Positions 27,697 through 51,401 of a stretch of DNA of 51,401 nt are shown here, piece after piece. The notes under the pieces are model-generated. The model worked only from the letters and a program-made list of their open reading frames with translations. It ran no database searches and was not told where the DNA came from. Numbering within the stretch: the stretch's first letter is position 1; each line of letters opens with the position of its first letter. A program made the translations under genes and the position numbers. The stretch is taken from NCBI GenBank assembly GCA_016206685.1, contig JACQRB010000060.1, forward strand, positions 1-51,401, read 5' to 3'. This DNA comes from Candidatus Omnitrophota bacterium (lineage in GTDB: Bacteria > Omnitrophota > Gorgyraeia > Aquiviventales > Aquiviventaceae).

Positions 27697-28077
27697 TCAA
27701 TACTCGATGGTGCCCAGCGCTGCGATATCCGGACTGAACGCCACGGCCAGCCCCAGTAGCGCGTCCTCGGCCTGGCGCTCTCCCTCGCGCCGCCCCACCG
27801 GCAACGGCTCCAGGCGCGTCACCCAGCCCTTCCCCAGCACCCGGGTAAATGGGAACAGCCGCGCCTGCTCAGGCGGAATCGCGATCGAGCAGATCACCGC
27901 GTCCCCGAGCTTCAGGACACACGGGGTCTGCGTATAACAAAAGACGCCGGCGAGGCTGAGGTCTTTCACCTGCCCCGTCACCGGCTCAGCAGACGCGTCC
28001 TGGGTGACCGGCCGGATGGCCACCGGCACATCCAGCTCAGCCCGTCGGAATCGCCGCCGTTCCATCGCCGTTTTCAT
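27697..28077 (-). CDS. stand-alone PilZ-domain protein (putative c-di-GMP receptor)
   Basis: 126 aa with the RxxxR motif (RRRFRRAE) and D-x-S-x-x-G (VKDLSLAGVF) at PilZ-typical spacing. Confidence 0.75.
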   Translation of the reverse strand: MKTAMERRRFRRAELDVPVAIRPVTQDASAEPVTGQVKDLSLAGVFCYTQTPCVLKLGDAVICSIAIPPEQARLFPFTRVLGKGWVTRLEPLPVGRREGERQAEDALLGLAVAFSPDIAALGTIEY

Positions 28078-28119
28078 GAACTCACCCGCTCCGTCTCACG
28101 CAACCTTAAATCTTCCAGT

Positions 28120-28148: not shown

Positions 28149-28164
28149 CTTTGCGAACGGTGGG

Positions 28165-31100
28165 TTACGCCTGGCTCAGCACGGCTTCCTGGTCGCGGAT
28201 CACGGCTTCGGCGGCTGGGGAGATCGCCAGCTCCGGGATGGTAAAGACCCCGGTGCCGTCTGACACCAGATCAAACTTGGCCCGCACGCGCTCGCTGAAC
28301 TGATCCCCTGCTACCGCGGCTTCCGCCGCCGCCATGATCACGTTCCAATCCAGCACGGCGTGGTCTGACGCCGCGCCCGGTCGCAAGGCGAACGCCGCCA
28401 CCTGCTGTCGCGAACGCTGCTCCAGCGCCAACTTCATGTCGCGCGCCCAGTCTTCAGGACCCACCACGAGTGCCACCTGCGCGCCCGGCACGCCCAGGTG
28501 CTCCAGCCGCCCCGGCAGGCTCCTGAGCAGCCCCTCCACACCATCCGCCTCATCCACCCGGAGGAATTGCAGCGACCCTTTCCAGTCCTCCAGCCCCTGA
28601 ATGCCGGCGGTGCGCAGCGCCTCTTGCAGCACGAGTTGCAGGTCGCGCTCAAGTTCCTGCAACGCGATCGCCAGCGGCACTCCGCGCTCCTTCAGTGCCG
28701 CCTCATGAACGATCACGACGCGTGGGTGGTCCATGTCCACCATGGCTTCCGCCTGCTCCGGGGTGGCGAGCGTATTCTCAAACAGCCCTGACAGGGCAGG
28801 ATCGCGCGCCAATGTCGCCTGCGCGATGAGCCGCTCATCCGCCACCGGCGCCACCGCCCCCGGCTGGGCGCGGCTGCTCAGGAATGCCGCCTCGAGCGCC
28901 TCCGCATAGTCCACGATGGCGCCAAGCGCGCCACGCAAGCGGCTCAATACGCTCTCAACCCGTCCCTGCAATTCTTCCGGGATGTCGCTCCGCTCAATCG
29001 CGGCTGTAACCTCACCCACCACCTCGGTCCATTGTCGCTCGAACTCGCCGGCTCGCTGCGTTTCTTGAGCCAGCGCGTTGCGCTCGCCAACTGGCGGGAT
29101 CGGCTGCGACGCGAACCAGTTCATGGTGTCCATCATGAGGCGATCGTGCTGCTGGGCGATGCGCTCATCAATGACTTCAATCATCTCTCTCGGCGCTTCC
29201 TCGAGTCGCAGGAACGCCTGCATTAGAAGATCGCGCCGCTCCTGGAGGCTCAGCTCCACGCCGCCGCGAGGCGCCTTCTTCGAGGGCGCGGGGCTATGCA
29301 TGGCGAGGATGGCAACGAGGTTCGCATCCACCCATCTGGGCGGCGTAGGTCCCTCGAGGCGACCTGTCATCTCATACTCGCCATTGGACAGACGTGAGAA
29401 CCGGGCTCGAGCGATGGAAAGCACGCTGCCCCGCTCGCTTAAGCCGACGATCTCCTCTGGCCACGCCACCCCGACGCTGAGCACCCGAATCGTTTCTCGC
29501 CCAATCGAGGCGTATCGAAATCGTCCACCCCGCACCAACGCCTCAAGGCGCGCCTCGATGCCCGCGTCGTCTTCTGCTGCCTTCGTCACCGGCGCCCCGC
29601 CGCGGAGCCCGCCCGCCCGCAGCGCGGCGAGCGTGCTGCCAAGATAGGGAACGATCTGCTCTTCGAAATTGTGTTGCCGAAGCAGCCCCCTAGCAAATGC
29701 GTCTCGTTTCTCCGGCGGAATGTTGAACTCTTCGGCGAGCGCCAACGCCTGAAGACTGCGGGATTCCAGGAGGCGTCCCCCCACATCACCTGTGACCTCC
29801 TCCGGCTTCATATCTAGCGCCTCGGCGATGGCACGCTTGGCCCGCGCCGTGATCTCCTCGAGCGTCAGCAACGCGGCGGCGGCCTCGGCTTCAATCAGCT
29901 TCGCGCCCACGACATACACAGCATCGACGACGCGGGCCGAATAGCCCCATTCATTGTCGTACCAGAAGAGCTGACGAACGAGATAGCGGTTCCCTCCGAG
30001 TGGCGTCACCTGCGTCCCCTCCTCGAGCAGAATCGAGGATTCCGAACGTCCCACGATCTGCTGCGAGCCAACCAAACCGGCTTCGACGGCGAGAATGCCT
30101 TGCAGCTGATCGGTGGCGGCCAGTTTGCGAAAATGCTCGTTGACCCCTTCAGCAGTCAACGGCATCCTTTCTGGGACCTCGACAATATTTGTGACCACAG
30201 AAATTGAGCCGGTGCCCGTGGGAACGCGCAGCGCCGTTCCGGATAGTTTGCCCGCAAGATCCGGCAGGATCGGCACGGTCGCCCGGTCCGCGCCGGTCTC
30301 GGTGAGGACCATGTTACGCGGAGCTGCTCGCCCCCGTTCCCGCCGCCTGTCGAAGCCATCGGTCAGGCGTTGCGTCCCGGTCACCGCGTGGGTGGTGCCC
30401 AAGACCCCTGCGAGCACACGGTATGGTCCCTGCTTGGCGATGGACATCGGAGGGGCATAGCTATTCGTCGTGCACGAGGCGCAATCGATCACTTCGGCAT
30501 CAGCCGGAAGCTGGTCCTCGTTGACGCCAAGGAGCAGCGAGAAGTCCGCCTTGTGCTCGTCGGCTTTCTTCGCGTCGCTCGGATTCGTCAAGATGACCCT
30601 TTTCGCGCCGGCTTCAAGATGACCGGCCAGGGCCTCCTTCGAGACAAATTCTCCCGTGGCATCCACCGCAATATCCACCTCGTGCCGGACCCACGGGAGG
30701 CCCTTAAGAATCCGCTGGCTATAGACCCAAATTCGCTGACCCTGGATTTCCAGCCAATCTCCGGTCTCATCTTTGCCCAGCTCTATAGGAAGGGAAAATT
30801 CGCCATGCTCAGTATCATGCTGCAGGGCGTACTTCAAGTACTCGGCAGACCGAGCGTTCACGGCCACAACTTGGATCTGATCAGGCCGATGATGCAGCAG
30901 GAGCTGACGCAAAATCGTCAATCCCGTGCGTCCGCCCGCCCCGTTGATCGCGACGCGAATCGGGCGCTTCAGGTGCAGGCCATCAGCGAATTTGCTCGGT
31001 TCCATCAACGAGCCTCTGACAACGCCGCTCTCGCCGCTATCATAGAAGACTTTCAGGTCGATGAGGCTGCCAAGACCGTCCACTTCCTTCACGACCAGGG

Positions 31101-34100
31101 TATCCGCATCGACCACGGCCGTCGCGTTGACATCCTGCACCATGGATGAAGCCTCTGTCGCTTGGACTTGGATCCCCGCAGCCCGGAGCGCTCCTACCAC
31201 ACGGTAGCCCTCGACTTTCTTCGGAACCAGCAAGGTGAGATGCACAAATGTGGGGCCCGGCGTGACATTTACGCCAATTACGGTCCCCGTAGCCTTCGGT
31301 GAACGCCCGACTACAATGTTATTCGGGGGAACCAGCAGGCGCTTCTCGCCCCGATAGGGCACGAGCGGCATCGGCTGATCGGTCGATGACCGCACGACGG
31401 TCGGGACCAACGCAGTCACCCCGCCGAACTCTTCGGATCGAAACACGTCAATGAGCGGCTTCAAGCGTTCAAGCGAGCCCTCGATCTGTTCAGCCACGAA
31501 ACGCGCTTCTGCACCCTGCTGGACTTTCTCGGGAACTTCTTCATAGGATACAAAATGACCTGCGACATAGGTGTACCGGCGGCCATCAATGTCGATAATT
31601 TTCACCCAGTGTTGAACAAATTGAGCGATCCGCTGAGCCGTGTCCACATAGCTGTCCTGCAGCGCCTGAATCCATTTCGGTGGACGCTCCAACGGCTTGT
31701 CGTTCAGGACAGTCAGTGAGTCATCAGGAAGCGCCTGGGGGACGGTCAGCGCGAGTGAGAGGAGATACTGCATCGCCCGCGGATCGCCTTGCTCGGCCAG
31801 TTGGCCTATTTCTTCCAACACCGCGCGATGCACATTGCTCAGGATCTCACGGCCACGCACTTTACCGTTCTCCTCCGATGAAGGCGCGTTGTACCACCAG
31901 AGCGACAAGATCGCTTCCTGGTGCGTGAGCCCGAAGATGCTTTCAAAAATCGGATGGAGCACTGTTTCGGTGACGGCACTCGTGCCCGTCTGCGGGAAAT
32001 AGGTCTTCACGTACTGCTCCGTCATGTAGATCTTGAGGGTAGCGGAGCTTTCCTCATACTCGGATAGCTCATAGGCCCCCCCTTCAAACAGATCGCCGAA
32101 GTGGGTTTGGGTTCCTAAATCGACCAGCACGATCTCAATATTTTTAATCGGTTTCCCTGCATATTCAGGCATCTGAGCGCTGACCGTCAGTCCCAGCTTG
32201 GCGATGCCAGCGGCACCTTCTCCGTTCGACAGAACCCGACCCAGGGCGCTTAACAATTCGGCCTGCTGAGCCGCGCGTACGTCACCGACCATGAACGGTG
32301 GCCGACCGTGACGGTAGAGGAGGTCGCCCATCCGTTGCAGCCAGCCAGGGTGGCTTTCATCGAGGGAACGCTTGCTGGCGGACGCGATCTGCTCGAGCAT
32401 CGCCCGGTGCGCGTCAGACCCCCTGGGAATGTCGCCCACACCGATGCCAGGCAGCCGTAGCGTAATGGCCTTGCCCACTGGCGCGTCGCCGCGCGGACCG
32501 ACCTGCGGTGCCTTCGTCTGGTTGATGAAGGACCACGTGCGCTCAAGGACCTGTTTAACCGTCGCCGAAGGCATTACGTCACCCAGGAGCCCGTAGAACG
32601 TCCCAAGCTGGTCTGCCGGGATGCCGGACTCTGCAGCAAGCGCGCGGGCGATGTTGCGGGACTGCCACGCCACCCATTCTTCGGAACTAACAGACGCATC
32701 TCCTGAGCCGGTCGTTCTCAGGATCAGCTCCCTTAGACTATCCGTAGCGTTGACGTCCTCAGGCTTCACCTTGAGCACCCCGGCGATGACTTTCTTCCCA
32801 TCGCCCAGGAAGTCTTCCTTCGCCGTGGTCGCGCCGCCGTGAGGACCGACCTTCGGGCGGGCGAGCACCAGCGTGAATCGCCTGGCGTCGGAATCGTAGT
32901 CGGCGTTCACAACCCCCAAGTCAGGCAAGGCTTCACCGTCCAGGAACTGGCGAGGATTCGCCACCCGGCGACCGTCCTCCCACGACACATCCAGTACGAT
33001 GCCCTGCTGATGATCGAGCACCTCATGCAAGAAGCCGCGCGCCTGCCGCACGGTCCAAATCGCGCCAGCCGGCAGGGCGTCCTTGCCGCCCGGATACCTG
33101 GCAAGGAGCTGGTCGGTCTTCGCCTGCACCGCGTCCAGCACGGCTCTCGCCTGGGCGATGAAGGCGTCGGCTTGCTTCTCCGACACGCCGAGTTTCTGAA
33201 GCAACGGGTTGGGTCCTTGGTGGAGGGTGGACGCTTGACGCCAAACGCGTCCCCACTCGTGCAAGACCTCAAGCCCCTCCAGGATGAGGGAGGCGAGCGT
33301 CTCGGGCTTGGCGGCTTGCGGGTTTTGCAGCTCCTGCCGGGTCAGCCACAACAAGGTCTCAGCGTACAACTGACGCAAAGGGGTCTGCTGGATTTGCTTG
33401 GGGAATTGGATGGACAACTGGTTCACGATGGTCACGATGGCATACGCCTCGCTGACTTCACCCGGCGCGCCGCCGCCGACACCAGGCAGGTCATACACCC
33501 CCTGCTCCGAATTCCATATCGCGGTGATGTTGTGGTGAGCCTTTTGCCGAATCCGGGTGGGATCAGTCGGATGCTGCTCCCACTCCTCCGTATTGACTAA
33601 CCTGCCGTCTGCGAAGCGAGCTTCCCCCAGCTCAGGCAGTCCAATCCGTTCCTGCGCCACCTGCTCGAATCGCTGAGTATTCTGGCTGATTTCCGGCGCG
33701 CCGTCCTGTTGGGTCAGGCGCTGGCGCAGGAGCGCGCGCCGCTCCTCGAGGCTCACCGCCGCGGGGGGAGTCGTCTCTGGAGCGAGCGCCCGTCCTTTCT
33801 CAAGGAGCGCCTCCGCCTCCACTCGGTCAATACCAAAGCCTTCAACTTGATTCCAGAACAACCGATGGTTGTCTTTTTCATAGACCGCCAACCGACGCAG
33901 GGCGCTCTCGTTGCCCGCCCTCGCTTGCTCAAGCACTTTCAGGAACTGCTGAGAGCTGAGCCCGCCGCCGGTCGGATCTTTGCGCCCTGCTGGAGTGGCC
34001 GTGTAGAACTGGCCTGCGGTTGAACCCCGCAAGGCCAAGGCGTCGGGTGAAGGGGTGCCAGCCATCAGGCGAATGCTATCCCAGTAGCCAGTTCCAGTTT

Positions 34101-37100
34101 CCCGATTACCATCGAACGCCGTGTAGCCGTGCTCCCTCGCCGCCTGCTCTTTGGCTTGGTGCTCGGCATACGCCACCATCCCTCGCAGTCCGACGTCCAG
34201 GGCGAGCTCGTATGTACTATAGGTAATGCCATGAAACCCGAACGTCGTGATGAATTGATACTTGTATCCCAGCTTGGCCAGTTCTTTTTGGAACGTTTCA
34301 AGCTCTTCTGTTCCTAGATGTTTATCCCACGGCAAGTTGCCCGAGAGGTTGAAGGCCAGGGGTTTGCCAGGGTATTTGGCGTGGATCGCTTCGGCGAATT
34401 GCTTCGCATGTTCCATGGAGATTGCATGGTCCTCAAACCACAGCAAGTCTGAGTAGGGCGCGAACTCGAGCGCCGTGGCAATCGCGCGTTCGATGCCTGG
34501 CCTGACCAGGTAGAGCTGATCGCGGTTCCTCAATGGTGCCCACGTCCCCCGTTCGCCTGCTTTGAGTTCCGTCACAAATCTCCCTGGGGTGATTTCCACC
34601 TCTTTCCACTCCCCGGCAAACCCGTTTGCAACAGCTTGGTCATAGGTCATTTCCTCGCGGTCATTCGTGACTCCCAGAATAAACGACCGGTCCCGAGGAT
34701 CATCCCTGAGGAGGAACTGGGCGTGGAGCGCGTCGGTGCGTCCAATAATCACAAACGGCACCCCCATCACGTCCCCGGCCAATCGTTGACCCTTCAGGCC
34801 GGCAATCATTTTCGTGGTCGTGGTATTGCACGCCCCTTTGAGATGTCCACAGACCTTATCTTCTGGAACTTGATTCTCGTCGTGGCCTATGCCCGCACCC
34901 GCTTTGATGACCGCCCGCGTTTTCACGAAGGCATGCCGCTCGCTGCCAAGCGCTTCAAAATCCACGACATGGAGGGGCCGCCAATCCTTGCGGGTACCCG
35001 GCTGACCTTGCAAGGCGGCTTGACGTGCGGTAAATTGCGCGGCGTTGTTGACCCGACGCACCGTCCTGACCTGCGTCGCCGGTGAGGAGTAGAGACTGAG
35101 GTCAGAGTAGATCTCCTCGTCATCGTTATTATCCGCCGCGTCGTTCCACCCACTCCCGTAAGTCCCCAGAATAGCCTTGGTCTTCCCCATGCGCTTGAGT
35201 TGCTGGCGCGCTTGGAGGACCTGCGCCACTTGTTGGCTTGTGTAGACGCCCAATCCGAAGATGAACTCCTCGGGATCCTTACCATAAACGATCTCCCGGA
35301 ACTGCTCCGCGTTCTCCCTGGCAGTCGCGTAGGTTTCAATATCCAACGCCCCACGCAGCCTCAGGACGGCCTCGGCCATGGACTTCGGGCGCTGCTCCGG
35401 CGGCAGGTCGGCCGGGTAGAACTGCACAAAATCTTCCCAGGTGTAATCGCGCTTGATCCCGTAGAGCGCTTCCTCTTTTTTCCACTGTGCCTCGAGCTCC
35501 TCGGCTTCCCGTTGCAGTTCAGAGGTCGCAGGCACCGGTTGAATGAACGACGCCTCATCGGGAGCTTTGGCCATGTCCTCTTGCATGAGAGAGATCGGGA
35601 TGCCCAGCAGTACCGCCGCGCGCTCCGCCGCCTGCTCGCCTGTCAGCTCTCCGAGATACACCTGCGCCAGCAGCCCACGCAGCACCGGAGCTTTCTCGGC
35701 GCGCTCCGAGAGAATGTTGACTCTGCGCTCAAGTAACGCATCGGAGAACGACGCAACGGCGTCGCGATGCTCTGCCGGCACCCGCGCCAGAGCGTCGGCT
35801 GCCTGCTGGGTTTCTCTCTCCAGAGCCGCCGCGGCGGCTTGTTTCTGTTCTTGATCCCGAATCCACTGGATGTCCTGGCCAATCTTGCCCAGATCAGTTG
35901 TTGACTCGGTTTGCTTGGGGGCGGTTTGCGAATCGCTGCCAAACTTTTCGACATAGGCGATGATCTGATCAACAGTTCTCTGCTCGCGCAAGCCGTGATA
36001 GAACGCCTCGAGATCGACCAGCGGGATGAAGATGCCGAATTCTCCCTCGACCAGATTCGATCCGATGGCCCCGAGATGGGACGCTACCTCTAAATCCCCC
36101 GTCACCGCCTCAAGGCTCAGACCTAACGCGGCGGCAACGGCTCGCTTCACGTTCCCTGCAATGTCTTCTCTGTCCGTCGTCGCGCCGCCGCCGAGCAGTT
36201 TCCCTTGCTGTTTGAGCAGGGCGGTGGCGAGCGTTATGGCGTTCGGATCTGTCGGTTCAGTAGAGAGCCGGCTGATTAACTGCGCAGCCTGGCCCGCGAT
36301 CTCATCTTGTCCGGCGTACGTGGCGGAGGTCTTCAGCCGTCCCAAGTCGCGCAGGAGGACCTTCGGGTCGACTGCCGGCGCGGCGGGCGCTGCAGCCGGT
36401 CCGTAGCTGCTCCGGACGAGCTGCAGGTACCCTTGTCCGGGCTCCTGCGGATTCGACGCGAAGACCAGGGTGTTCACATGGGAGACCGCGCCTTCCGGCT
36501 GCACACCCGGCACATCGAATGGGAGTCTCTGGTCGGTGCGCCCGTCGCTCGCGAAGGTGAAGCTGCCGGCGATAGGCTCGGTGACCTGGCGTGACGAGAA
36601 GATCTTCCCAGCAAGCACCTCATTGATATCCCCATACGCTGCTCGGTAGCCGATGAGCTTCGTTTTAACTTTGGCTGCCTCCGGGTCCGACCAGTCGTCC
36701 TTCAACGCCATGCCTTTCTTCACGTTGGGGCTGACGACCTGAAATCCGGCGTAAGCACCGTCGCCGGTATAGGCTGAAGCGATAAGGGTGTTCCAGACCG
36801 CCTCCGTCATTCCGGAACGCCGCAAGAAAATCCGCAGCGGCCCTCCCTTCACGCCCAGCGTGGCGGCGACCGCCGGCTGGACCGTGCCTTCGGAGATCAC
36901 CTCATACTGGAGTCCGGTCCGTTCGCTGATGGCCTTCAGCTCCGCCACATCACCGGTATCCGCCGTGAGCGTTGTCACGTGCACCCGGCTGAGATCAGCC
37001 TCGCCATTGAGCGCTGCGATTCGTGAAATCAGCGTCTCAATCCCAAGACTTGGGTTGAGAAATTCCTCGATCGACGCAACCTGGTGCAGAGTTAACACCG

Positions 37101-41364: not shown

Positions 41365-41370
41365 GCCTCT

Positions 41371-41694
41371 TTAGCGCACCGCGCCGAGCTCTGTGCGCGC
41401 GGCCACCTGCATCGTCTGTGCCAGCAGATGCGGCGCCTTGGCTCTCGCCAGCTCCACGAACGGCTGGCGGATGTACGGCGGCAACTTGTGGTTCTCCAGG
41501 ACCGTGCGCATCACGTCTTCCGGGGTGAACCCGGGAGGGGTCGTGATGGTCATCAAATGCTCACTGGAAGCTTCCTCAAGGTCGTGCCAGCTCACGGCAC
41601 CCTGGCGCTTCTCTTGAGAAAACGCTACCTCGGCTGGACACAAAAAAAGCACCGCGGCAAGCCCCGCTCCCACAAGTCCTCCGGTTCTGCTCAT
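41371..41694 (-). CDS. small (107-aa) secreted hypothetical protein, first gene after the promoter
   Basis: The ATG at 41694 is preceded by GGGAGGAGAGGCG. Signal-like MSRTGGLVGAGLAAVLFLCPAEVAFS-Q. I recognise no family. Confidence 0.55.
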   Translation of the reverse strand: MSRTGGLVGAGLAAVLFLCPAEVAFSQEKRQGAVSWHDLEEASSEHLMTITTPPGFTPEDVMRTVLENHKLPPYIRQPFVELARAKAPHLLAQTMQVAARTELGAVR

Positions 41695-41737
41695 CGCCTC
41701 TCCTCCCATGGTGGTCTGCCTATCGAAAAGTTCACTG

Positions 41738-41766
41738 ATATTAATACATTAACAAAAGTTTGTCAA
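41738..41766 (-). promoter_or_regulatory. near-consensus sigma70 promoter driving 41694 and downstream genes (small ORF, 535-aa ORF, giant ORF)
   Basis: Minus strand reads TTGACA (41766-41761), 17 nt, TAATAT (41743-41738), inside a ~145-nt strongly A/T-rich spacer in otherwise G+C-rich DNA. Confidence 0.55.
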
Positions 41767-41855
41767 GTGTTTTTTTATATGTGCGAGATGCACATTCTCT
41801 CCACGCATATCTCAGTTATAACTATTTTATTATCAATATCTTATATACATACAAC

Positions 41856-44800: not shown

Positions 44801-47800
44801 TAAACACCCCCATGACAGAGCCGTGTTCCCAACCCGCCGCAAGGCGGAAGAGTTGTCCGCTCTCCCGGAGATACTTCCTGAGCTCCTGGTAGAAGAACCG
44901 CTTGGCGAGCTCGTAATACCCGATGCCGGTATAGAGGACGGAGCCATAGAGGTGGGATTGTTTCCTCGCAGGAAGGATGGAGTCCAGGAATGTCACAAGC
45001 TCGCGCAACGCGCTCGGCTGGCGCTCATGGTCACCAGCGAAGTCAATCACGTAGACCAACCCGTTCGCTTCGGCACTCGCCACCCCAACAGCTCGACTGA
45101 CGGCGGAATTGAAAAACGACTGAGCCAGCTCAATGTCAGGCTTCAGGACGCCAAGGGACTTGGTGTACGCCTCCTTGATGGCCTTCCACGTCGCGGGGTC
45201 GTTAAACCGCTCGCCGAGCTGCTGTTTGAGCGCGGGCAACGCGTGCTGCAAGACGTAGCGGTAATACAATCCCACCCGATCCTCATCATCGGAGACCACC
45301 CCCGACCACTCGCGCCGCTCGAAGCGCTCCGAAGCCCTGGCAGCAATCCGGTCGAGTCCCCGCTGGTAACCGTCAAACGCGTTGAGGATCGCCCGGGCGC
45401 CCTGGCGCGCCGCCCACCACGACTGCCCGTGCTTGACCCACCATAGGACAAATCCGCCCAGGCGCGCCATGAGCGCCTGCACGCCCGCCCGGAAGGTTCC
45501 CGTCGGCACGGGCATCCCCAACCACATAGCTGCCAAATTCGCGAGGACGGGCGCGTGTACCGTGGCGTGTGTCGTGGCACGATCGCGTGCTTCCCATTCC
45601 CACCGCCATGCCCCATCGTGGCGCACGAGCCGATAGCCGGCCTGACGGTAGAGGTTGTTGAGCCGCTCAATGGTGTTGCGATGCAGCGGGAGCTGCGTGC
45701 TGTCAAAGAGCTGACTGCCGGTTGGCATACGGATCCGGTGAAAGCCCCGCTGTTCTGCGTAGGTCCGAAAGACCCGTTCAGTCAGGTGTTCAATAGAGCC
45801 AATCTGCTCCCGAAGCGTTGGAGGCAACCGATCAATCTGGAGCCACGCCTGTAACTGCCCGATGTGCGCCACGCGCCTATCTTCGTCGTCGAGTTCAAAG
45901 GTCACCGTGCTCAGCAGCAACGGCGCTGTGGGATCGTCTCGCGCCGGGAGATACGGCAACAGCGCGGTGAGCAGCGACTGATCCGCCAGCCACACCGAGA
46001 ATGCCTCCTGACCCTCAATGTCAGGAAGACCAGTCAGGTCATCATGGACCGGACCTTCGCTGAAGCGGAGCTGCGAGGCGTGGAGCGGATCCTGCAGCGA
46101 CCCGTCAGGTAACTCGAAGTCGTGATGCTTAATGCCCAGCATGTCCCCGTAGCTTGAGTACGTTTTGTCACGGTTGCTGAGCAAGGTGGCTGTGGAGTTC
46201 TTCACATCCCATTTGACACCGAGGCGCTCATCGGCAATGGCAGCGATCGAAAGACCATTAGCCAATGCTTGATCGATGGATGGCCAGCGGTCCGGGTTGA
46301 GCAGGTAATCGCCCATCATGGACAGCGCCTCATCCCATCGCTCGCCGAACCGGCTCCGGAGATAGTCGGCTGTCTGAGGAGGCAGCGTTGACAGGGCGTC
46401 CCCGTCAGGCTGTTTCGAGAAGCCCCTGATACGTTGCAGGGATGCAGCCAATCGCTGCGCCATGCGTTGCGGCAAGCCGACGGACCAGGCAAGCCAGACG
46501 GCGCCCGTGAGCATCACGGATGCCTGGAGGATCACACCGGCGGGGCTGTCCGCCAAGCCGGGATGGAACCACTCCATCAGGGGGCGCAGCGCAAACACCG
46601 CCACACCAAGCAGGACGGGACCCTGACGGCGTTTCCACAGCGGGCTCCTGGCTCCTTTGACCACCTGGACGATGGAAATCTCCTGCGCCAAGAGCCGTTG
46701 CGCATCCCCTCCGCGCTTCTCAAAGGCGGCTCGAAGAGCCGCGTTGATGGCTTCGGTGAGCTCCGGATGCCTCAGCAGCGTGTCATGGCTTGGCACCCAT
46801 CCCAGCAGACGGCTGGTATCGTAGAGCGAAAGGACCAGCGTTCCATCGGGAAGCCGGGTGAAATACGCCAGGTCCTCCTTCGTGCCCAGGGCTTGGAGGA
46901 TCCGCGCCGCCAGCGATTCCGCCTGGTGAGCGCTCTTCTGGGCTTTGACGAGGCGGATGCCGGTGATGCCCTGCCTGGCAATCGGATGCGCGGCTTTCCC
47001 GCGTCCCCGCAAGGCGGCTCGAAGAGCTGCGTTGATGGCTTCGGTGAGCTTCGGATGCTTCGAGAGCGTGCTCACGCTCGGCGATCCTTCCAGCAGACGG
47101 ATGGTGTCTTTAATCGTGAGGGTCACCACCCCGTCTGGGGATCGAGTCACGGTGTCGAGCGCGCCGGCAACCTGCAGGGCATCGAGCAGCCGCAGCGCCA
47201 ATGCCTTGGCATACGCGGACAATTGCTTCGGGTCTTTCGGGGTCTGTTGGGGAGGATAGGGTTTCTTGATGGGCGCCGTTCTGAACGAAGCCAGCTGCCC
47301 GGGTGAAAGCTGCGCGGCGAGGGTCAGGTAGTCCGTTCGGACGGTGAGCACGCGGTCAGACGGTTCCTGTTCCTCGTCCCCTCCTTCTCCCTTTTCTTCA
47401 AGCTCAAGACGGGGATTACCATAGAAACGCACCCTCACCAATTTCACCCAGGTGCCCAATGGAGGATTTTCGAGACGCGTCGCCTCCACTGCCTCAATGA
47501 CGCCAAGCCCGAATCCGTCGTGCACCACCTCCACCCCAAGCTGCCAGGGATCTTCCGGCACCGCGTTGACAGGCGCAGGAACTGGCGCGGGGCGTGGGGC
47601 AACCACCTGCTGAACCTTCTTAGGCGCTTCCTCAACGATTGGAGGCGGCTTCTGGATCTTGTCCTTCGCCTTTGATAGCGGTGGTGTGGTCGGAGCCGGT
47701 TGGATGAGCCGATCGTAGGCGTCACGGATGGCGGTCTCGGCTGCTTGGGGCGAGCCGAATGGAGCGAGCACAGAATCGGAAGGGTCGGCCGTTTGCGCTC

Positions 47801-50800
47801 CCGTGGCATCGGAGGAGAAGGACACGCGAGGATCAGTCGTCACGAACCGCGCATCATTGCGATTGCGCTCCAAGTCCACGCCGCGCAGGACGTCCGGTCT
47901 GCTGGAAGCCGCCGGCGGTTCGGGCGTCCTCTCAATGATCTTGCGTGCCACATCGCGCAACCGCTGCCAGAGGTCCCTGTACCAGGCAAGCCCGAGGATG
48001 CCGGCAAGCAGGACTCCCCCAGATGCGGTATCAGATACGGTAGCTGATACCAAGCCCGCCGCGCCCAACCCCAACGCCGAGAGCCCGAGGAGGATGGGCA
48101 GGAAGAGCTCAGTTCGAAGCGCTCCCTCCTCGCGGGAGAACGTCCCTCCACGATGCAGAGGGACGCGGTTCCGAGTGAGGGCGTTGACCGCGCGAGTGAG
48201 ATAGGCCAACTGCTGGCTTGCAGGACCGATCACCCGGTAGCCGATCTCCTCAGCCTCCTCCACGGGCAAGCGTTCCTCCTGTCTCAGCGCGGCGAAGTAC
48301 GCCGTGACATCCTCCCAGAGCTCGGCGACCTCCTTCAGGCGCTCCGGGATGTCCTCCGCGGCGACCGAGCTCATGGGAGGGAGGGCGGACTCGAGCGCCT
48401 CCAGCCGCCTGAGGAGCGTGTAATAGCGCTTGCCGAGGCGGTCAGAACCCGCCAGGGACGTGAGGAGCGGCTCCACCTCCCTCACCAGGAATTGGCGGAG
48501 CGGCTCGCCTATCGCCGCAAGCTGGTCGCTCTTCTTGCGGCGATAGGTCTCGAGGGACTTGAGCATCCCGACGACGAGCGGCAAGAGCTCCACCGGCGGC
48601 AGCGAGGAGAGAGAATCAAACGGGACGGGTCTGCGCTGTGGGTCGCGCTCCTTCCGGCTGGGGTGCGGCTTAATCGGCATCCTTGCCGCTAGCTCCCGCA
48701 GCTTTTGCTGGAGCTCCTTCAGCGCGGGCGGTGGCGAATCGGTTTGCCGAGCCAGCGCGCGAAGCTCCCCAATCCAGGCGCGGATGGCACGGACGGCTGT
48801 CGGCGCGTTCGCCAACCCCTCAAACTCCTTCAGCACGACCGATTCGAGATCGTCCGCAAGCCGGGCGTACAGGGTGCGTGAATGAATCCTCCCTTGCGCG
48901 AAATCACGGAAGTGGATGAGCAAATCGTCCACAGCCACCTTGAGAAGGAACCCGCGCATGTAGGCGCGCGCCGCGTTGCGCCGGTTGACCGGCTTCTCCT
49001 TGAGCGAGTCTTCAGCATCCATGAACCAGGATTCGTGTTCTTGGACGCGAGTAGCCGCAGCCGCCAGCGCCGGCGGTGCCTGAGGCGCAGGCATTGCTAT
49101 CTCAACCTCGGTCGCCCCAACCAACCGCGCCATCGCCACGAAGAACGCCAGCGGCGTCATCCACGCCAACAACCGGAAGCGCCCGCGCGGCTTGAGGGGT
49201 AGGTTCTGTGTTCCGGGCTGAGCAGGGCGGTCTTCCAGCAACTTGGCGTCCTGCCCCGCGCGCCCTGACGGCGGCTCGCTTGCGTCGAGAACCTGGGAGG
49301 CTCGTTGTCTCGGGGCGCGCAGGAGTCTCCATGACCTCCAGAAGATCGCCCCACCAGCCACCATCAAGCCAAGACCAAGGAGGATGTGAAAACGGTCCAA
49401 GATGTCGAATTGCAGGAGCCGACCAATGCCGGTGAGAGCCACAAACGCGCCCAAGCCGAACAACCCAGCTCCGAAAGGCCCGATGTCTGACCGCGAGACG
49501 ATCTGATCAACGCGAAGTATGATCTTGAACTGCGCACGGCGCTTAGCCCACTGCGCCAGATAGCGAAGGGAAACTTTCGAACGCCTGTCTCTGGCGTGTT
49601 TGATCAGCTCGTCTTCACGCTGGTCGAGGCGTTGCTTGATTGCAGTGAGCAGCCGGCTGCGTTCAACCCCCAGGATCCAGTCTCCCAGCCAGCCGAACAA
49701 CCCCAAGGCGAGGAAGGCGCCACCCGCCAGTAACAGCCAATACATCGCAGGGTTGCTGATCCTGAGGTCAGTCGGCGAGCCGAGGTTAGCCTGGGCCGCG
49801 GCAGCCAGGGAGCCGAGATCGAGCCCAAACGCGCTGGCAAGCCCCAACCCCGCCCACTCCGCCGCCACCAGCAGGAGGGTCAGCTTGACAGCGTTCAGCG
49901 TCGTGGGATATACTGACTGGTGCCATGAAACCCATCGAGGCCATCGACTCCCTCGAGGACGGGCAAAATGAAGAACTCGCGTGAGAAGCTCATTCAAGTC
50001 GATCCAGATATCTGTCACGGAAAACCGTGCTTTGCCGAAACGCGGATTCTCGTCTCCGATATTCTGGAGCTCCTTGGAGCCGGGATTGCTCCCACCGAGA
50101 TCACGTCGAAGTACTTCCCCCGACTTCGTCAAGCGCATGTCCGTGCGGCGCTGCAGTACGCGGCTGAGCAGTTGAACAACCGCGAATTTGTGGCGTTCAG
50201 CAACTCCTAGCCCGTCGTGCGGCTGCTGCTCGACGAAAACATCCCGAAGCCGACTGAAGACGCGCTGCGCGTGCTGGGGCATAGCGTCCTCCGCGCCCCC
50301 GTTCGAACGAAGGATGAGACGATCGCTCGAGCGGCGGAAGCCAAGCGGGTGATCCTCCTCACGCGTGACGACGATTTCTTGAATTTTCTGCCCCCGACGC
50401 ACTCGGGCATCGTCGTGATCCGCATCCACCCGCCTGTTGCCGAAGCCATCACGCGAGCCGTCAGGATGCTCCTGGAAGCCCACCCTGAGCGCTGGCTGCG
50501 AGGGAAAGCCCTGCTTTTGCGCCGCGACGGCTACGAGCTCGTCCGGTAATTTCGTGGCTAATCCCGCCTGCATCCCTGCCGTCGCCTTCGGCGGTGTCGG
50601 AACCGTCGTGGCCCACCCCTGCCCGGCCAAAGCCAGGAAGACCGCCACCGCCGCAAGTGTCAGGCCAAGCACGAGCGGCAGCCAGGCATGGAGGGCGGTG
50701 CCGTGCTGATGAACGGGATGAAAGACGATGACGCCTGATGCCTTTGCAATCGCTTCAATCTCCGCCACCCCAACGTCATACATCCTGGTGTCGGGCGTGA

Positions 50801-51401
50801 TGAGCACCTCACCGATTCCGAGCTCGCGACCCTCCCCGGGGTTGCGCCCATCGAACAGGCGATTGTAGTCCCGCAGCGCCTGCGTGAGCTCGCCGAGCCG
50901 CTCACGAACCTGGCGGAACTGCTTGCTCTGTAACGCTTCCTTCGCCGACGCAATGAGCAGCTCGCAGAAACACAACACTATCCCCAACTGCATACGCTCC
51001 TGCCACCCCTGCTCCTTGCCCCGTCTCAGGGATTCCATGGCGCGGTCATGGAGCTGCTCAAGAGGAATCCGGCTGCCGGCACGATGCACAGTCACCATCC
51101 CCAGCGCCATCGGCGTCATGGCGATGCCTGCCGCTCCTGTCGGCGAAGCGGCAAGCAGCTCAACGACAGTGACGACCAGCAGCGCGAGCCACGGATGCTT
51201 GCGGACAGACTGAACCGGGGAGTACCAGAGGGGCGGCAAATGACCACCTGTGTCCGCCGCCAGTTTCGCGAGGGCTCCACCGGCTTCCTGGCGGACGTGC
51301 GGATGGGGGTCTTGTCGGAGCACCCGTGCAAGGGCGCGCCGGTTGACGCGGCGGACCATGCGGTCGCGCGGATCCATCTCGCCCAGCGCCCTGGCGGCTT
51401 C
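41856..51401 (-). CDS. giant polytopic multidomain ORF (at least 3,173 aa, 5' end beyond window): HEAT repeats, TM segments, tandem ~95-aa repeats, AceK-like module, C-terminal multi-TM region. As read it is continuous, but 49968-50549 is antisense to a toxin-antitoxin pair
   Basis: No stop occurs in this frame from the window edge to 41856. Upstream of the ORF-track Met the frame still reads HEAT-like EAARALGE. Composition is protein-like except across roughly 49900-50560. Whether this is one gene or two is unresolved (see findings). Confidence 0.55.
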   Translation of the reverse strand, partial: EAARALGEMDPRDRMVRRVNRRALARVLRQDPHPHVRQEAGGALAKLAADTGGHLPPLWYSPVQSVRKHPWLALLVVTVVELLAASPTGAAGIAMTPMALGMVTVHRAGSRIPLEQLHDRAMESLRRGKEQGWQERMQLGIVLCFCELLIASAKEALQSKQFRQVRERLGELTQALRDYNRLFDGRNPGEGRELGIGEVLITPDTRMYDVGVAEIEAIAKASGVIVFHPVHQHGTALHAWLPLVLGLTLAAVAVFLALAGQGWATTVPTPPKATAGMQAGLATKLPDELVAVAAQKQGFPSQPALRVGFQEHPDGSRDGFGNRRVDADHDDARVRRGQKIQEIVVTREEDHPLGFRRSSDRLILRSNGGAEDAMPQHAQRVFSRLRDVFVEQQPHDGLGVAERHKFAVVQLLSRVLQRRTDMRLTKSGEVLRRDLGGSNPGSKELQNIGDENPRFGKARFSVTDIWIDLNELLTRVLHFARPRGSRWPRWVSWHQSVYPTTLNAVKLTLLLVAAEWAGLGLASAFGLDLGSLAAAAQANLGSPTDLRISNPAMYWLLLAGGAFLALGLFGWLGDWILGVERSRLLTAIKQRLDQREDELIKHARDRRSKVSLRYLAQWAKRRAQFKIILRVDQIVSRSDIGPFGAGLFGLGAFVALTGIGRLLQFDILDRFHILLGLGLMVAGGAIFWRSWRLLRAPRQRASQVLDASEPPSGRAGQDAKLLEDRPAQPGTQNLPLKPRGRFRLLAWMTPLAFFVAMARLVGATEVEIAMPAPQAPPALAAAATRVQEHESWFMDAEDSLKEKPVNRRNAARAYMRGFLLKVAVDDLLIHFRDFAQGRIHSRTLYARLADDLESVVLKEFEGLANAPTAVRAIRAWIGELRALARQTDSPPPALKELQQKLRELAARMPIKPHPSRKERDPQRRPVPFDSLSSLPPVELLPLVVGMLKSLETYRRKKSDQLAAIGEPLRQFLVREVEPLLTSLAGSDRLGKRYYTLLRRLEALESALPPMSSVAAEDIPERLKEVAELWEDVTAYFAALRQEERLPVEEAEEIGYRVIGPASQQLAYLTRAVNALTRNRVPLHRGGTFSREEGALRTELFLPILLGLSALGLGAAGLVSATVSDTASGGVLLAGILGLAWYRDLWQRLRDVARKIIERTPEPPAASSRPDVLRGVDLERNRNDARFVTTDPRVSFSSDATGAQTADPSDSVLAPFGSPQAAETAIRDAYDRLIQPAPTTPPLSKAKDKIQKPPPIVEEAPKKVQQVVAPRPAPVPAPVNAVPEDPWQLGVEVVHDGFGLGVIEAVEATRLENPPLGTWVKLVRVRFYGNPRLELEEKGEGGDEEQEPSDRVLTVRTDYLTLAAQLSPGQLASFRTAPIKKPYPPQQTPKDPKQLSAYAKALALRLLDALQVAGALDTVTRSPDGVVTLTIKDTIRLLEGSPSVSTLSKHPKLTEAINAALRAALRGRGKAAHPIARQGITGIRLVKAQKSAHQAESLAARILQALGTKEDLAYFTRLPDGTLVLSLYDTSRLLGWVPSHDTLLRHPELTEAINAALRAAFEKRGGDAQRLLAQEISIVQVVKGARSPLWKRRQGPVLLGVAVFALRPLMEWFHPGLADSPAGVILQASVMLTGAVWLAWSVGLPQRMAQRLAASLQRIRGFSKQPDGDALSTLPPQTADYLRSRFGERWDEALSMMGDYLLNPDRWPSIDQALANGLSIAAIADERLGVKWDVKNSTATLLSNRDKTYSSYGDMLGIKHHDFELPDGSLQDPLHASQLRFSEGPVHDDLTGLPDIEGQEAFSVWLADQSLLTALLPYLPARDDPTAPLLLSTVTFELDDEDRRVAHIGQLQAWLQIDRLPPTLREQIGSIEHLTERVFRTYAEQRGFHRIRMPTGSQLFDSTQLPLHRNTIERLNNLYRQAGYRLVRHDGAWRWEWEARDRATTHATVHAPVLANLAAMWLGMPVPTGTFRAGVQALMARLGGFVLWWVKHGQSWWAARQGARAILNAFDGYQRGLDRIAARASERFERREWSGVVSDDEDRVGLYYRYVLQHALPALKQQLGERFNDPATWKAIKEAYTKSLGVLKPDIELAQSFFNSAVSRAVGVASAEANGLVYVIDFAGDHERQPSALRELVTFLDSILPARKQSHLYGSVLYTGIGYYELAKRFFYQELRKYLRESGQLFRLAAGWEHGSVMGVFTLPGSGYVFKIIKDPVRQFVKDKYRFVREHDRVGRMLDASTYENLRLEKRYFSEELLEFLLAHAAESVSVEGDFVLIKHVYVQREVTPLQLYLEQNAQNPDIIRRVLMDFGNGIKDLMAAGIFPGEVWNFKFWNFGVTSYGRVVLYDYDDLQQLTAITFKHMLRQLSVQDDDTSNLYYEELGKNEIVLQGYTDPQGEPSLEEFFAAHIPEQFWEEFQAVHGDLFSAGSYYKIQEQLRNGQVPEFFAYPQERRFLAGRAPADSSPQTQDLIRRILADYRFRVPYEDLDRDVQLAAGEVETSFRHHHIDPRQVQVEMVQSRFYRNRGAFLIGRFRTGSVSLPFVLALTHPDGQGITVDAVLLEDTDLEPFFSSTRSSFRVQVTSPLFKTYMSSSVQRIQERKDATDPASNELNRRVRTVLSYSAVAGALLVSASLIDWVVTGQLTFWQNYFELQKHPGWTSFALAALTALTSGGARLIGVYLSSANLPKRFQALMVFSYVLYRPLQAVFLSLVFVLIDYFLPSTGSLAALPRAIVSTGIGLATGMLYDLFEPIGIRRLTARSYEQVGRFEEAKRLREQATAGKQWDRVLTGVIARSATHFAVHDLAQNLFESEFRIFTVFVYGFVNQAFRSAVAYHAHPRFSPKGVFLWGGVVAVLGVAVKFVYSAYFDQPFAYGQWTLMGIATVSLAVLSAFYFHHKTVKTKTTGEANGRPARGDGSNLPNMTFGDPPAQEFLQRHGLWEEGLWRPQARGTFIIGGGAGGGSEVSNRSWNQVSKLRVELRLFLYRAQAALRDFFAQWDQTERLRARELPRQLVDLLAPAANRIDDAQTAEELLAGVDGAFRNVLAHLKRARRFGLTRSQFNQIGYQVALTQQAVAQVKKAYQDQRPSAPPVRSWVLPLFLAPVAGLFAVSPLLAQGIGQVVGAGSASSWGLWAAGLIGLAITVLALAGWAWKRRHHLQPGEETITQRASNAIRALAITVKSL
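43650..45390 (-). other. domain: isocitrate dehydrogenase kinase/phosphatase (AceK)-like, with non-canonical segment order
   Basis: ILNAFDGYQRGLDRIAARASERFERREW ... FFNSAVSRAV (AceK N-terminal region). VFTLPGSGYVFKIIKD, REHDRVGRMLDA, IKHVYVQREVTPL, FGNGIKDLMAAGIFPGE, NFGVTSYGRVVLYDYDD (kinase core). After the C-terminal-like FAYPQERRF come SRFYRNRGAFLIGRF ... VDAVLLED ... FFSSTRSSFRVQV. Confidence 0.75.
46645..47215 (-). repeat. two tandem ~95-aa protein repeats inside the giant ORF
   Basis: ...SPDGVVTLTIKDTIRLLEGSPSVSTLSKHPKLTEAINAALRAAL... is followed by ...LPDGTLVLSLYDTSRLLGWVPSHDTLLRHPELTEAINAALRAAF.... The DNA cores 47011-47060 and 46724-46773 differ at only 3 of 50 positions. Confidence 0.75.
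49885..49914 (+). promoter_or_regulatory. candidate sigma70 promoter for the DUF433/DUF5615 pair
   Basis: Plus strand reads TTGACA (49885-49890), 18 nt, TATACT (49909-49914), about 54 nt upstream of the DUF433 ATG. Confidence 0.4.
49968..50210 (+). CDS. DUF433-family protein (putative antitoxin)
   Basis: 80 aa. IQVDPDICHGKPCFAETRILVSDILELLGAGIAPTEITSKYFPRLRQAHVRAALQYAAE fits the DUF433 pattern (DP-x-I-x-x-GKP, x-GTRI-x-V, IL, YP-L, AL-YA). GAGGA lies upstream of the ATG. Confidence 0.8.
   Translation: MKNSREKLIQVDPDICHGKPCFAETRILVSDILELLGAGIAPTEITSKYFPRLRQAHVRAALQYAAEQLNNREFVAFSNS
50217..50549 (+). CDS. DUF5615-family PIN-like protein (putative toxin)
   Basis: 110 aa with a GTG start. MRLLLDENIPKPTEDALRVLGHSV...RVILLTRDDDF...HSGIVVIR fits the DUF5615 pattern (LLDENLP, G-H-x-V, ILVT-x-D-x-DF, G-V-I-x-L). 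It starts 6 nt after the DUF433 stop, which is the usual pairing. Confidence 0.78.
   Translation: MRLLLDENIPKPTEDALRVLGHSVLRAPVRTKDETIARAAEAKRVILLTRDDDFLNFLPPTHSGIVVIRIHPPVAEAITRAVRMLLEAHPERWLRGKALLLRRDGYELVR
51250..51401 (-). other. domain: HEAT (PBS-lyase-type) repeats at the window edge
   Basis: EAARALGEMDPRDRMV...ALARVLRQDPHPHVRQEAGGALAKL shows the typical D-x-x-x-VR-x-x-A-x-x-AL periodicity. Confidence 0.5.

Follow-up and report, generated by a model that had tools for sequence, protein, structure and literature searches.

The 51,401-nt contig analysed here, JACQRB010000060.1 of a Candidatus Omnitrophota bacterium (hereafter the window), carries in its right part two adjacent giant genes, G2 and G1, separated by a promoter and the genes for two partner proteins, s112 and p535. 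Comparison with related loci supports the view that both giants are components of a single conserved system of co-directional genes, which has its own promoter and secreted partners dedicated to it. The system has two parts, a membrane giant (G2) and a promoter-led operon for the secreted partners and a leader-bearing chain of enzyme modules (G1). The enzyme modules are interchangeable between loci, and GAPDH, the sole module tested, is under strong purifying selection. The region is probably the 3′ half of a conserved Omnitrophota giant-gene locus of the multi-enzyme (Archaeovorin-like) kind, unusually compact, whose enzyme chain would act as an array in the cell envelope.

Every gene of the giant-gene region (27697-51401) lies on the minus strand, in the transcription order G2, a 146-nt spacer, s112, p535, G1, PilZ:

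41856..51401, minus strand: G2, 3′ part of a giant multi-pass membrane protein (at least 3,181 codons), its open reading frame (ORF) still open at the window end
41710..41855, minus strand: AT-rich spacer between G2 and s112, GC 0.308 against 0.64 for the window
41738..41766, minus strand: sigma-70-type promoter TTGACA-17-TAATAT after an A-tract, the -35 hexamer invariant in nine loci
41371..41709, minus strand: s112, a small protein with a Sec-type N-terminus, kept in three other loci
39757..41364, minus strand: p535, conserved partner protein, for which the gene caller places the start at 41313
28165..39735, minus strand: G1, multi-enzyme polyprotein of 3,856 residues with a leader and no internal transmembrane (TM) segment
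39634..39735, minus strand: family-specific Sec-type leader of G1, with basic residues and Trp, a hydrophobic stretch, SQxxPxAxA and then xxLR
27697..28077, minus strand: PilZ-domain protein, PF07238 at 27.5 bits against a cutoff of 22.5

The intergenic gaps are 6 nt from s112 to p535, 21 nt (with AGGAG) from p535 to G1, 87 nt from G1 to PilZ and 6 nt from PilZ to the gene for a solute-binding protein (SBP). Reading frames are unbroken over 11.6 kb in G1 and 9.5 kb in G2. GC is 0.616-0.618 and third-position GC (GC3) 0.72 in both giants, against a GC3 of 0.75-0.88 in most neighbouring genes. The listed ORF of G2 (41856-51377, 3,173 residues) is a lower bound: the frame runs through 51378-51401 without meeting a stop, and a weak HEAT-repeat match covers its first residues, so that the gene is incomplete and represents the 3′ part of a longer one. 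A search of the window for Rfam families gave none, and the two spacers contain no inverted repeats of 8 bp or more.

The original prediction, made from the letters of the window alone, had described two adjacent giants carrying ICL (isocitrate lyase) and AceK modules, and domain searches bore this out, placing Pfam ICL in G1 and both AceK domains in G2. Its statement that both giants exceed 3,000 residues is right as to size but not in treating G2 as a complete gene of 3,173 residues, because G2 is cut by the contig end. It had also correctly picked out a near-consensus promoter ahead of the transcription unit of the ICL gene (read in the direction of transcription, 41766..41738), secretion-type N-termini on the 107- and 535-residue proteins (both hydrophobic and Sec-type), a PilZ gene behind the ICL giant, and the higher A/T content of the spacer and, to a lesser degree, of the giants. 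It had seen no transposase, integrase or phage gene; likewise, no such domain was matched in the giant-gene region, and an origin of the locus from a mobile element or phage was rejected for this reason.

The arrangement is not peculiar to the window. p535 has 105 relatives in one protein database, of which all six with an organism name come from Candidatus Omnitrophota/Omnitrophica, and a further 389 in metagenome contigs. In the related loci (given L numbers below, and proteins P numbers), sequence was visible only for 10 kb on each side of p535. Wherever there was enough flank, p535 was preceded by a giant of 5,298-47,725 residues and followed by one or more large proteins with enzyme domains; the order giant, p535, enzyme polyprotein(s) was seen in L001-L010 and L015. 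Wherever the flank sufficed, PilZ came after the polyprotein, as in the window. L004, like L011 (described below), is an Omnitrophota metagenome-assembled genome (MAG). Thus, the search for synteny in related genomes and metagenomes that the original prediction had proposed found the same order recurring, and the possibility it had raised, that the arrangement occurs in no other genome, is contradicted by the p535 relatives and their shared gene order in independent assemblies. A small ORF precedes p535 in the window and three other loci. These encode s112 (112 residues from the first ATG, 107 from the second Met) and relatives with 61% identity in L008, 35% in L007 and 39% in L087; the three loci were drawn from four fetched records, two of which, L013 and L007, are one contig.

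The proteins downstream of p535 differ in their enzyme modules from locus to locus:

L002/L003: GAPDH and class I fructose-bisphosphate aldolase (FBA)
L004: PGM/PMM, then PilZ, then SBP
L005: FBPase_3, then ECH with GAPDH
L007: FBPase_3, then a 5,059-residue protein with malate synthase, ICL, PGK and enolase
L008: FBPase_3, then methyltransferase and PPDK
L009: ECH, CsrA, ADH and acetyl-CoA carboxylase carboxyltransferase
L010: PGK and TIM
L015: malate synthase and FBPase_3

One chain, P0237, combines PPDK, GAPDH, TIM, PGK, class II FBA and enolase. Across loci the modules belong mostly to glycolysis and gluconeogenesis, with gluconeogenic and glyoxylate enzymes prominent (fructose bisphosphatase, FBPase, of two classes, FBA, GAPDH, PGK, TIM, enolase, PPDK, ICL and malate synthase); unrelated modules (ECH, acetyl-CoA carboxylase carboxyltransferase, methyltransferases) occur in some. 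The homologues of G2 at the matching position carry methyltransferase, GT4 glycosyltransferase, hydrolase and HEAT domains.

Individual loci have further contents. CsrA lies at about 13700-13860 in L009, MutS domains III and V at about 6700-8060 in L005, and a pyridoxal phosphate-dependent enzyme with a methyltransferase is embedded in the giant of L007 at about 5620-7500. In L002/L003 a HicA toxin gene and a small partner gene (11576-11979) stand on the opposite strand between p535 and the downstream polyprotein.

Conservation extends to the signals that flank the coding sequences. The leader motif of G1 (SQxxPxAxA, then a YLR-like sequence beyond the predicted cleavage site) is also present on 11 downstream proteins of other loci, on P0228-P0237 and on the downstream protein of L015, in all on every downstream protein examined; the loci concerned are L002, L004, L005, L007-L010 and L015. 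This suggests that the leader may be a family-specific sorting signal rather than a generic signal peptide. The promoter pattern, an A-tract followed by an invariant TTGACA, 17 nt and TAnnAT, was found in the window and eight other loci, the p535 proteins of which are only 35-56% identical to that of the window. Promoter-like matches in the scanned 15-kb region were no more frequent than expected by chance (3 found, 2.3 expected), so that the promoter claim rests on conservation of the site in nine loci. The conserved promoter regions are:

window, 41738-41800, minus strand
L001, 9880-9922
L002, 9900-9942
L004, 9800-9840
L005, 9905-9950
L007, 9287-9325
L008, 9550-9592
L009, 9885-9930
L010, 9870-9915

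The promoter stands between G2, with its AceK module, and the ICL gene, which probably lie in different transcription units. A second motif, GCTGTGGGAGGC, occurs just before the p535 start in five loci that have no small ORF and is absent from the window spacer; its role may be that of a leader element or of an extended ribosome-binding site. Its sites are:

L002, 9975-10000
L004, 9905-9925
L005, 9975-10000
L009, 9975-10000
L010, 9955-9975

The partner protein p535 has an N-terminal signal peptide or membrane anchor, and its alpha/beta core, which appears to be of the Tiki/EreA/ChaN type, is interrupted by a helical insertion of some 300 residues. Its AlphaFold2 model has a predicted local distance difference test score (pLDDT) of 92.5, and the best fold matches obtained with Foldseek (the EreA-like structures 3b55/2rad, EreC, ChaN and HopBA1) agree with one another, the top ones all belonging to this superfamily. 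A match to PF04187 was found at E 3.8e-4 (20.9 bits against a cutoff of 27.7), and IQEAH, VEGG, R99, R426 and GGFH are nearly invariant in 51 homologues. An exact database look-up of p535 with a GTG start found no entry. In P0239, a p535 homologue forms the first 535 residues of a 5,223-residue polyprotein (residues 46-535; E 9e-40), a fusion that ties p535 functionally to the polyproteins. By eye, this polyprotein also has PPDK-like and dehydrogenase-like regions.

G1 contains four enzyme families, one copy each and none dominating, with small helical domains and a conserved non-enzyme module between them:

38026..38901, minus strand: class II FBP-aldolase-like module, residues 279-570, Pfam 31.9 bits against a cutoff of 25.5 (E 1.3e-7)
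36496..37503, minus strand: GlpX/FBPase-like sugar-phosphatase module, residues ~745-1080, with a DPIEGTT motif (GlpX E 0.016, under the cutoff)
35956..36162, minus strand: ACP-like spacer domain, copy 1, by repeat and profile comparison
34003..35376, minus strand: isocitrate lyase module, ending at residue 1910, Pfam ICL E 3.7e-43
32536..32829, minus strand: ACP-like spacer domain, copy 2, by profile comparison
31753..32481, minus strand: conserved non-enzyme module of the polyprotein family, residues 2419-2661, with TLxLPG ... LHPxxE ... GLxHQEA ... YN
29881..30960, minus strand: type I GAPDH module, residues 2926-3285, Pfam N and C domains at E 3e-17 and 6e-21, both over the cutoff
29626..29868, minus strand: ACP-like spacer domain, copy 3, by repeat and profile comparison
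28243..28764, minus strand: C-terminal tail, 27.5% identical over 207 residues to the C-terminus of the L015 downstream protein (E 3e-7)

ICL structures in the PDB match G1 at E 4e-69 in sequence searches, and the alignment is near full length (residues 28-423 of a 433-residue ICL, with a 50-residue insertion). The catalytic Cys and His are kept, as are RTDA, the equivalent of E285 and the Asp and Glu of the DAEAG motif, which we take to be the Mg ligands in this family. GAPDH structures match at E 1.5e-58; ASCTTN and TTHAVT are present, and with them the catalytic Cys and His. Compared with the closest relative, L005, the first 150 residues of the GAPDH module are 95% identical, and the ratio of non-synonymous to synonymous substitution rates (dN/dS) is 0.054, against 0.37 for the non-enzyme stretch that precedes it. 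Thus, GAPDH is constrained like a working enzyme and the linkers evolve faster.

The aldolase-like module, 30% identical to P0229 (E 1e-36), keeps MDH, AAHGG and VQHGAS, presumably the places of the three Zn-ligand histidines of the aldolase family. The GlpX-like module is 29% identical to the GlpX domain of P0229 (E 5e-17), whose own GlpX match is 2e-19. A phmmer search of the PDB gave nothing useful for either. As a profile, the three small domains match 17 acyl carrier protein (ACP) sequences at E 6e-5 to 1.5e-4, but a carrier function was rejected because the expected site has no conserved serine and the L005 homologue has an insertion there; we read them as probable spacers. The ∼240-residue non-enzyme module had only 14 representatives out of 1.84 billion in an exhaustive representative search. 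Its model (pLDDT 74.7) gave no significant fold match, and its invariant His and Glu hint at a possible metal site. Self-BLAST revealed the internal repeats only once the proteins had been cut into chunks. An exact look-up of P0226, a candidate second copy of G1, found no entry, and this candidate was rejected as it is G1 itself with another start.

G2 has ∼15 TM-like segments by hydropathy and an AceK module (residues 1994-2575) in rearranged form:

51258..51401, minus strand: weak HEAT-repeat match at the cut N-terminal edge, PF13646, E 0.011, profile positions 19-59 of 88, under the Pfam cutoff
46644..47225, minus strand: tandem duplication of ∼95 residues (1385-1482 and 1480-1578), 48% identical
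45561..46385, minus strand: conserved non-enzyme module, residues ∼1665-1939, motifs RFGxRWDEALSMMG and HRNTIERLNxLYRxAGYRLV, common to other upstream giants
45090..45398, minus strand: AceK regulatory domain, first part (Escherichia coli AceK residues 10-110), by alignment to 3eps_A
44040..44999, minus strand: AceK kinase/phosphatase domain (AceK residues 267-570), by Pfam and alignment to 3eps_A
43653..44015, minus strand: AceK regulatory domain, second part (AceK residues 124-263), displaced to the 3′ side of the kinase domain, by Pfam and alignment to 3eps_A
41952..43556, minus strand: C-terminal cluster of TM-like segments, by hydropathy

Pfam identifies the AceK kinase domain at E 4e-60 and the regulatory domain at E 1.8e-57, and AceK structures in the PDB match G2 at E 1.9e-62 in sequence searches. 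The order of the parts is Reg(10-110), kinase(267-570), Reg(124-263). It is canonical in the AceK modules of L010 and L011, and in the L015 remnant the kinase domain is not followed by a regulatory segment. From these alignments, the change of order seems to be specific to the lineage of the window. K336, N462, D475 and D477 are kept, whereas the position of D457 is Glu with an adjoining 3-residue insertion; Asp is kept there by canonical AceKs and by the two other giant-borne AceKs that cover the site. For the roles of these residues (catalytic Asp457, Lys336, Asn462, Asp475, Asp477) we assume those of the E. coli enzyme. The module sits in a 975-residue loop between TM segments, and the K/R bias of the flanking segments weakly suggests that this loop lies inside the cell. 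Elsewhere, residues 252-703 of G2 are 45% identical to the upstream giant of L005, and the non-enzyme module is 62% and 44% identical to L001 and 43% to L023. The tandem 95-residue unit looks helix-turn-helix-like by eye and has no Pfam match.

AceK modules were found in four loci (the window, L010, L015 and L011), in three of which a glyoxylate-shunt module is nearby. In the window and L011 it is ICL; in L015 it is malate synthase, in the protein directly after p535. L011, an Omnitrophica MAG with 49% GC and hence a distant lineage, encodes a 696-residue ICL protein followed at once by a 2,119-residue ADH-ACAD-AceK protein. In L010 most of the downstream giant lies beyond the visible sequence. 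When the non-redundant p535 loci were restricted to those flanked by at least 3-5 kb on each side, a glyoxylate module accompanied AceK in two of three AceK-positive loci, against none of 22-27 AceK-negative ones (one, if the more distant malate synthase-ICL protein of L007 is counted; Fisher p 0.007-0.03). The association is suggestive. When the AceK and ICL modules were used as queries, nearly all homologues retrieved were enzymes of normal length, 34-42% identical, the exception being P0245, which led to L011; these searches missed the window's own giants and hence cannot tell whether giant carriers exist. The idea that ICL or AceK was recently acquired by horizontal transfer from one particular donor was rejected, as the best matches are 37-42% identical and spread over many phyla. 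In L011 the gene that follows the AceK-bearing protein (8627-9274) runs off the contig; it has the family leader, with the ending FALRPRS, at its start and is NUDIX-like by eye.

In the reading that we favour, G1 would be exported or anchored in the envelope through its family-specific leader, and p535 may assemble or process it. It would form a fixed array of active enzymes that convert C2-C4 acids and triose phosphates to hexose phosphates at the membrane or at a host-cell interface. The array could be coupled to the sugar importer and glycoside hydrolases (GHs) encoded downstream, with PilZ as the route by which c-di-GMP switches it. The AceK module of G2 might face the cytoplasm and be a phospho-switch partnering the glyoxylate-shunt module, as in aceBAK, with isocitrate dehydrogenase (IDH) or the enzyme array itself as its target. 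The original prediction had proposed a glyoxylate/gluconeogenesis mega-assembly with its own AceK-type regulator. This is borne out in part, by the conserved system, the prominence of gluconeogenic and glyoxylate modules, the AceK pairing in three independent loci and the strong purifying selection on GAPDH. A dedicated aceA/aceK system is not, because the modules are interchangeable, malate synthase is lacking here and AceK and ICL probably belong to different transcription units, and a simple cytoplasmic metabolon is made doubtful by the conserved Sec-type leader on G1 and all its relatives.

Several findings weigh against the envelope-array reading. The chain carries a Sec-type leader although its enzymes depend on NAD, ATP and Mg, which fits poorly with catalysis outside the cytoplasm, and the chains of relatives bear PGK, PPDK, an acetyl-CoA carboxylase subunit, CsrA and MutS domains; the embedded non-metabolic domains (CsrA, MutS) fit poorly with any carbon-processing model and are hard to explain. 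Conserved motifs of the ICL module are altered (KKCGH to KVCGH, HFEDQ to HDENQ, NCSPSFNW to NLSGNLPW), as is AceK with its Glu at the catalytic Asp and displaced regulatory half, and scores fall below the equivalog cutoffs for ICL (TIGR01346, 242.5 against 275.9), GAPDH (TIGR01534, 254.8 against 367.2) and AceK (NF002804, 425.5 against 488). Neither malate synthase nor IDH was matched in the window. The fold matches of p535 are each non-significant (E at least 0.05), the topology of G2 comes from a hydropathy window and the positive-inside rule rather than a trained predictor, and the association of AceK with glyoxylate modules rests on three AceK-positive loci including the discovery case, at 10 kb visible per side. 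Finally, in this analysis the window was assigned to the Omnitrophota on the strength of homologues and synteny, and the L001 record is labelled 'uncultured Planctomycetales'.

Because cofactor-dependent enzymes stand behind an export signal, we kept two rivals in which the chain works where cofactors are available. G1 might be bound to G2 as a membrane-tethered metabolon on the inner side, running gluconeogenesis and the glyoxylate bypass for its own cell, with AceK phosphorylating the cell's IDH and so directing isocitrate to the embedded ICL. This would supply the cytoplasmic cofactors needed by GAPDH and, in relatives, by PGK and PPDK. It also agrees with the predicted position of the AceK loop inside the cell, the association of AceK with ICL or malate synthase modules and the strong selection on GAPDH. 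In a recent preprint, IDH was reported in 165 of 176 complete Omnitrophota genomes and TM-only giants were read as cytoplasm-facing (10.64898/2026.06.07.730766). We nevertheless think it rather unlikely: the leader at the start of G1 and of all its downstream homologues, with its basic residues and AxA site, predicts export; secretion or anchoring is likewise predicted for s112 and p535; the differences in modules between loci mean that no fixed pathway is encoded; and the promoter separates AceK from ICL. Alternatively, the chain might be an effector polyprotein delivered onto or into a host or prey cell, or a shared junction, where it would rewire carbon flow, with the modules as variable cargo, comparable to that of multi-effector toxins, and p535 as the processing hydrolase; isocitrate would be turned to glyoxylate and succinate, and trioses to hexoses, in the host, to the benefit of the small bacterium. 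The leader, the secreted partners, the shuffling of modules between orthologous loci, the hydrolase-like p535 and its fusion to the polyprotein in P0239, and the importer and GH genes downstream are all in keeping with delivery. So are accounts in the literature of Omnitrophota as host-dependent or predatory and of clusters resembling type II secretion systems and type IV pili (T2SS/T4P) preceding giant genes. However, G1 shows neither a recognisable domain for translocation, pore formation or receptor binding nor any recognisable cleavage site, and no secretion cluster is visible within the window, which ends inside G2. The modules are also housekeeping-type enzymes rather than known toxins, and the dN/dS of GAPDH is that of a core enzyme rather than an arms-race effector. 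We judge delivery decidedly improbable.

The remaining alternatives dispense with catalysis. By analogy with moonlighting glycolytic enzymes, the enzyme folds could be structural or binding modules of a scaffold or adhesin on the cell surface. A leader without TM segments in G1, the substitutions in the ICL and AceK catalytic motifs and the sub-cutoff scores would all be expected of such a protein, and adhesion roles have been proposed for Omnitrophota giants in the literature. The GAPDH and ICL catalytic Cys and His and the expected aldolase Zn-ligand motifs are kept, however; a GAPDH dN/dS of 0.05 reflects stronger constraint than expected of a mere scaffold, and the modules of the various loci, taken together, make up coherent stretches of pathway, so that this explanation appears very unlikely. 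An artefact, whether a chimeric assembly or a decaying pseudogene array without function, might be suspected from the cut end of G2 and from the somewhat lower GC3 of the giants than of their neighbours. It is excluded, for practical purposes, by synteny, conservation and dN/dS: the frames are open throughout, the same gene order recurs in many independent assemblies from different projects, a relative 77% identical at the amino-acid level shows dN/dS well below 1, and the promoter and leader are conserved.

The PilZ protein has both c-di-GMP-binding motifs, RxxxR and DxSxxG (RRRFRR, DLSLAG), and PilZ proteins at the matching position are 38% identical in L004 and 53% in L036. After PilZ come, in order, SBP_bac_1, two permeases, TPR proteins, a GH2-like protein, GH94, ROK, LacI, AroA, MreB, MreC, PBP2 and RodA; those assigned to sugar use and its regulation are:

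24589..27690, minus strand: sugar ABC importer (SBP_bac_1 26359-27690; permeases 25467-26492 and 24589-25857)
17015-20557, minus strand: GH2-like protein of 1,180 residues, by domain search
14410-16674, minus strand: GH94 phosphorylase, by domain search
13161-14393, minus strand: ROK regulator, by domain search
11155-12189, minus strand: LacI regulator, by domain search

Further along, a 457-residue ORF between AroA and an aminotransferase (7221-8594, minus strand) has no Pfam match, and no other gene of the window has a GC3 as low as its 0.68. The rod-shape genes for RodA, PBP2, a probable MreD, MreC and MreB form a complete cluster at 237-5770 on the same strand as the giant locus, which is noteworthy if the organism belongs to the ultra-small coccoid Omnitrophota.

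The giant genes of the Omnitrophota rank with the largest genes known. The compact split locus offers parts small enough to express and assay: an enzyme chain of 3.9 thousand residues, a partner of 0.5 thousand residues with a confident model, a defined promoter and a defined leader. It also shows glyoxylate-shunt enzymes and AceK to be present in the lineage as embedded modules, though the shunt was scored absent in a recent genome survey; metabolic reconstructions of these host-dependent bacteria may thus overlook pathways that giant proteins contain. The repeated occurrence of AceK together with ICL or malate synthase makes a testable hypothesis of regulation. A bolder idea, which we regard as doubtful, is that the Omnitrophota have an overlooked glyoxylate/gluconeogenic pathway existing only as giant-locus modules, with leader-bearing polyproteins, an AceK switch in the membrane giant and assembly or processing by p535, the whole being controlled by c-di-GMP and exported or envelope-bound at the host interface. 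If true, this would be a new way of organizing central metabolism.

With respect to known systems, ICL and AceK homologues are neighbours here as in the aceBAK operon of enterobacteria, and AceK stands by malate synthase in L015 and by ICL in L011. The principle of pairing bypass enzymes with a kinase/phosphatase may have been kept. Unlike aceBAK, the modules lie inside giant proteins and probably in separate transcription units, with AceK upstream, malate synthase is missing, the AceK regulatory domain is split around a kinase domain with Glu for Asp457, and ICL is on a leader-bearing chain. MARTX-type toxins and polyketide or fatty acid synthases with ACP, which serve as analogies only, resemble G1 in having catalytic modules on one chain with small helical ACP-like domains between them and a content that varies among orthologous loci. 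G1, however, has no homology to toxin translocation or processing domains, and its ACP-like domains lack the conserved phosphopantetheine serine. p535 shares with the Tiki/TraB/erythromycin-esterase/ChaN superfamily the weak PF04187 match, an alpha/beta core, conserved His/Glu/Arg/His positions and its best fold matches. It differs in its ∼300-residue helical insertion, and all matches are below significance.

The closest likeness is to the giant genes already described from the Omnitrophota. In a 2023 preprint (10.1101/2023.11.21.568195), these 'Archaeovorins' have many TM helices and HEAT (the commonest), glycosyltransferase, methyltransferase, GH, peptidase and NUDIX domains and, less often, TPI, GPI, FBPase, PGM/PMM, FBA and PPDK domains. 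Their ORFs exceed 20 kb, or encode at least 30,000 residues in that set, the type being a 39,678-residue protein of Velamenicoccus archaeovorus. A T2SS/T4P-like cluster precedes them, N-terminal C39/S8 peptidase and SecA_DEAD domains occur, and pilZ lies directly 3′, followed by solute-binding proteins, transporters or permeases and glycosyl hydrolases. The window agrees in its multi-pass membrane giant with HEAT-like sequence, its embedded glycolytic-type domains (FBA and FBPase being named in the paper) and the pilZ directly downstream with solute-binding proteins, permeases and GHs after it, and its relatives agree in having same-position genes of 21-47 thousand residues with methyltransferase, glycosyltransferase and hydrolase modules. 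It differs in gene size (3-4 thousand residues, a lower bound for G2, against more than 30 thousand), in carrying the enzyme array on a separate, TM-free, leader-bearing gene, and in the absence of glycosyltransferase, GH, NUDIX, C39/S8 and SecA_DEAD domains from the visible parts of its giants. Among Omnitrophota proteins of at least 10,000 residues, a 2026 preprint (10.64898/2026.06.07.730766) defines a 'multi-enzyme metabolic cluster' class and notes GH2 flanks. Like G1, members of this class have many enzyme Pfams tiling one chain with none dominating, and like the window they show signal-peptide-only or TM topologies and GH2 genes in their flanks, where secretion/pilus genes also lie; G1, at 3,856 residues, is unlike them in falling below the catalogue threshold. 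ICL and aceB were found there by KofamScan in 0 of 176 complete genomes, against ICL, malate synthase and AceK as embedded modules in the related loci studied here.

In term searches of the 2023 and 2026 preprint texts on giant genes, supplements and figures aside, neither isocitrate lyase nor AceK is mentioned, and malate synthase, GAPDH, PGK and enolase modules, a p535 partner, an internal promoter and a shared leader are absent from the examined main-text sections of 10.1101/2023.11.21.568195. The kind of locus is already described in these preprints, where it is linked to a host-dependent or predatory way of life, and the window fits the Omnitrophota giant-gene type in every visible feature, as a small split version. 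What is new comprises the modules of the glyoxylate shunt and of AceK, the pairing of the two, the altered domain order of AceK, p535 and its fusion, and the conserved promoter and leader.

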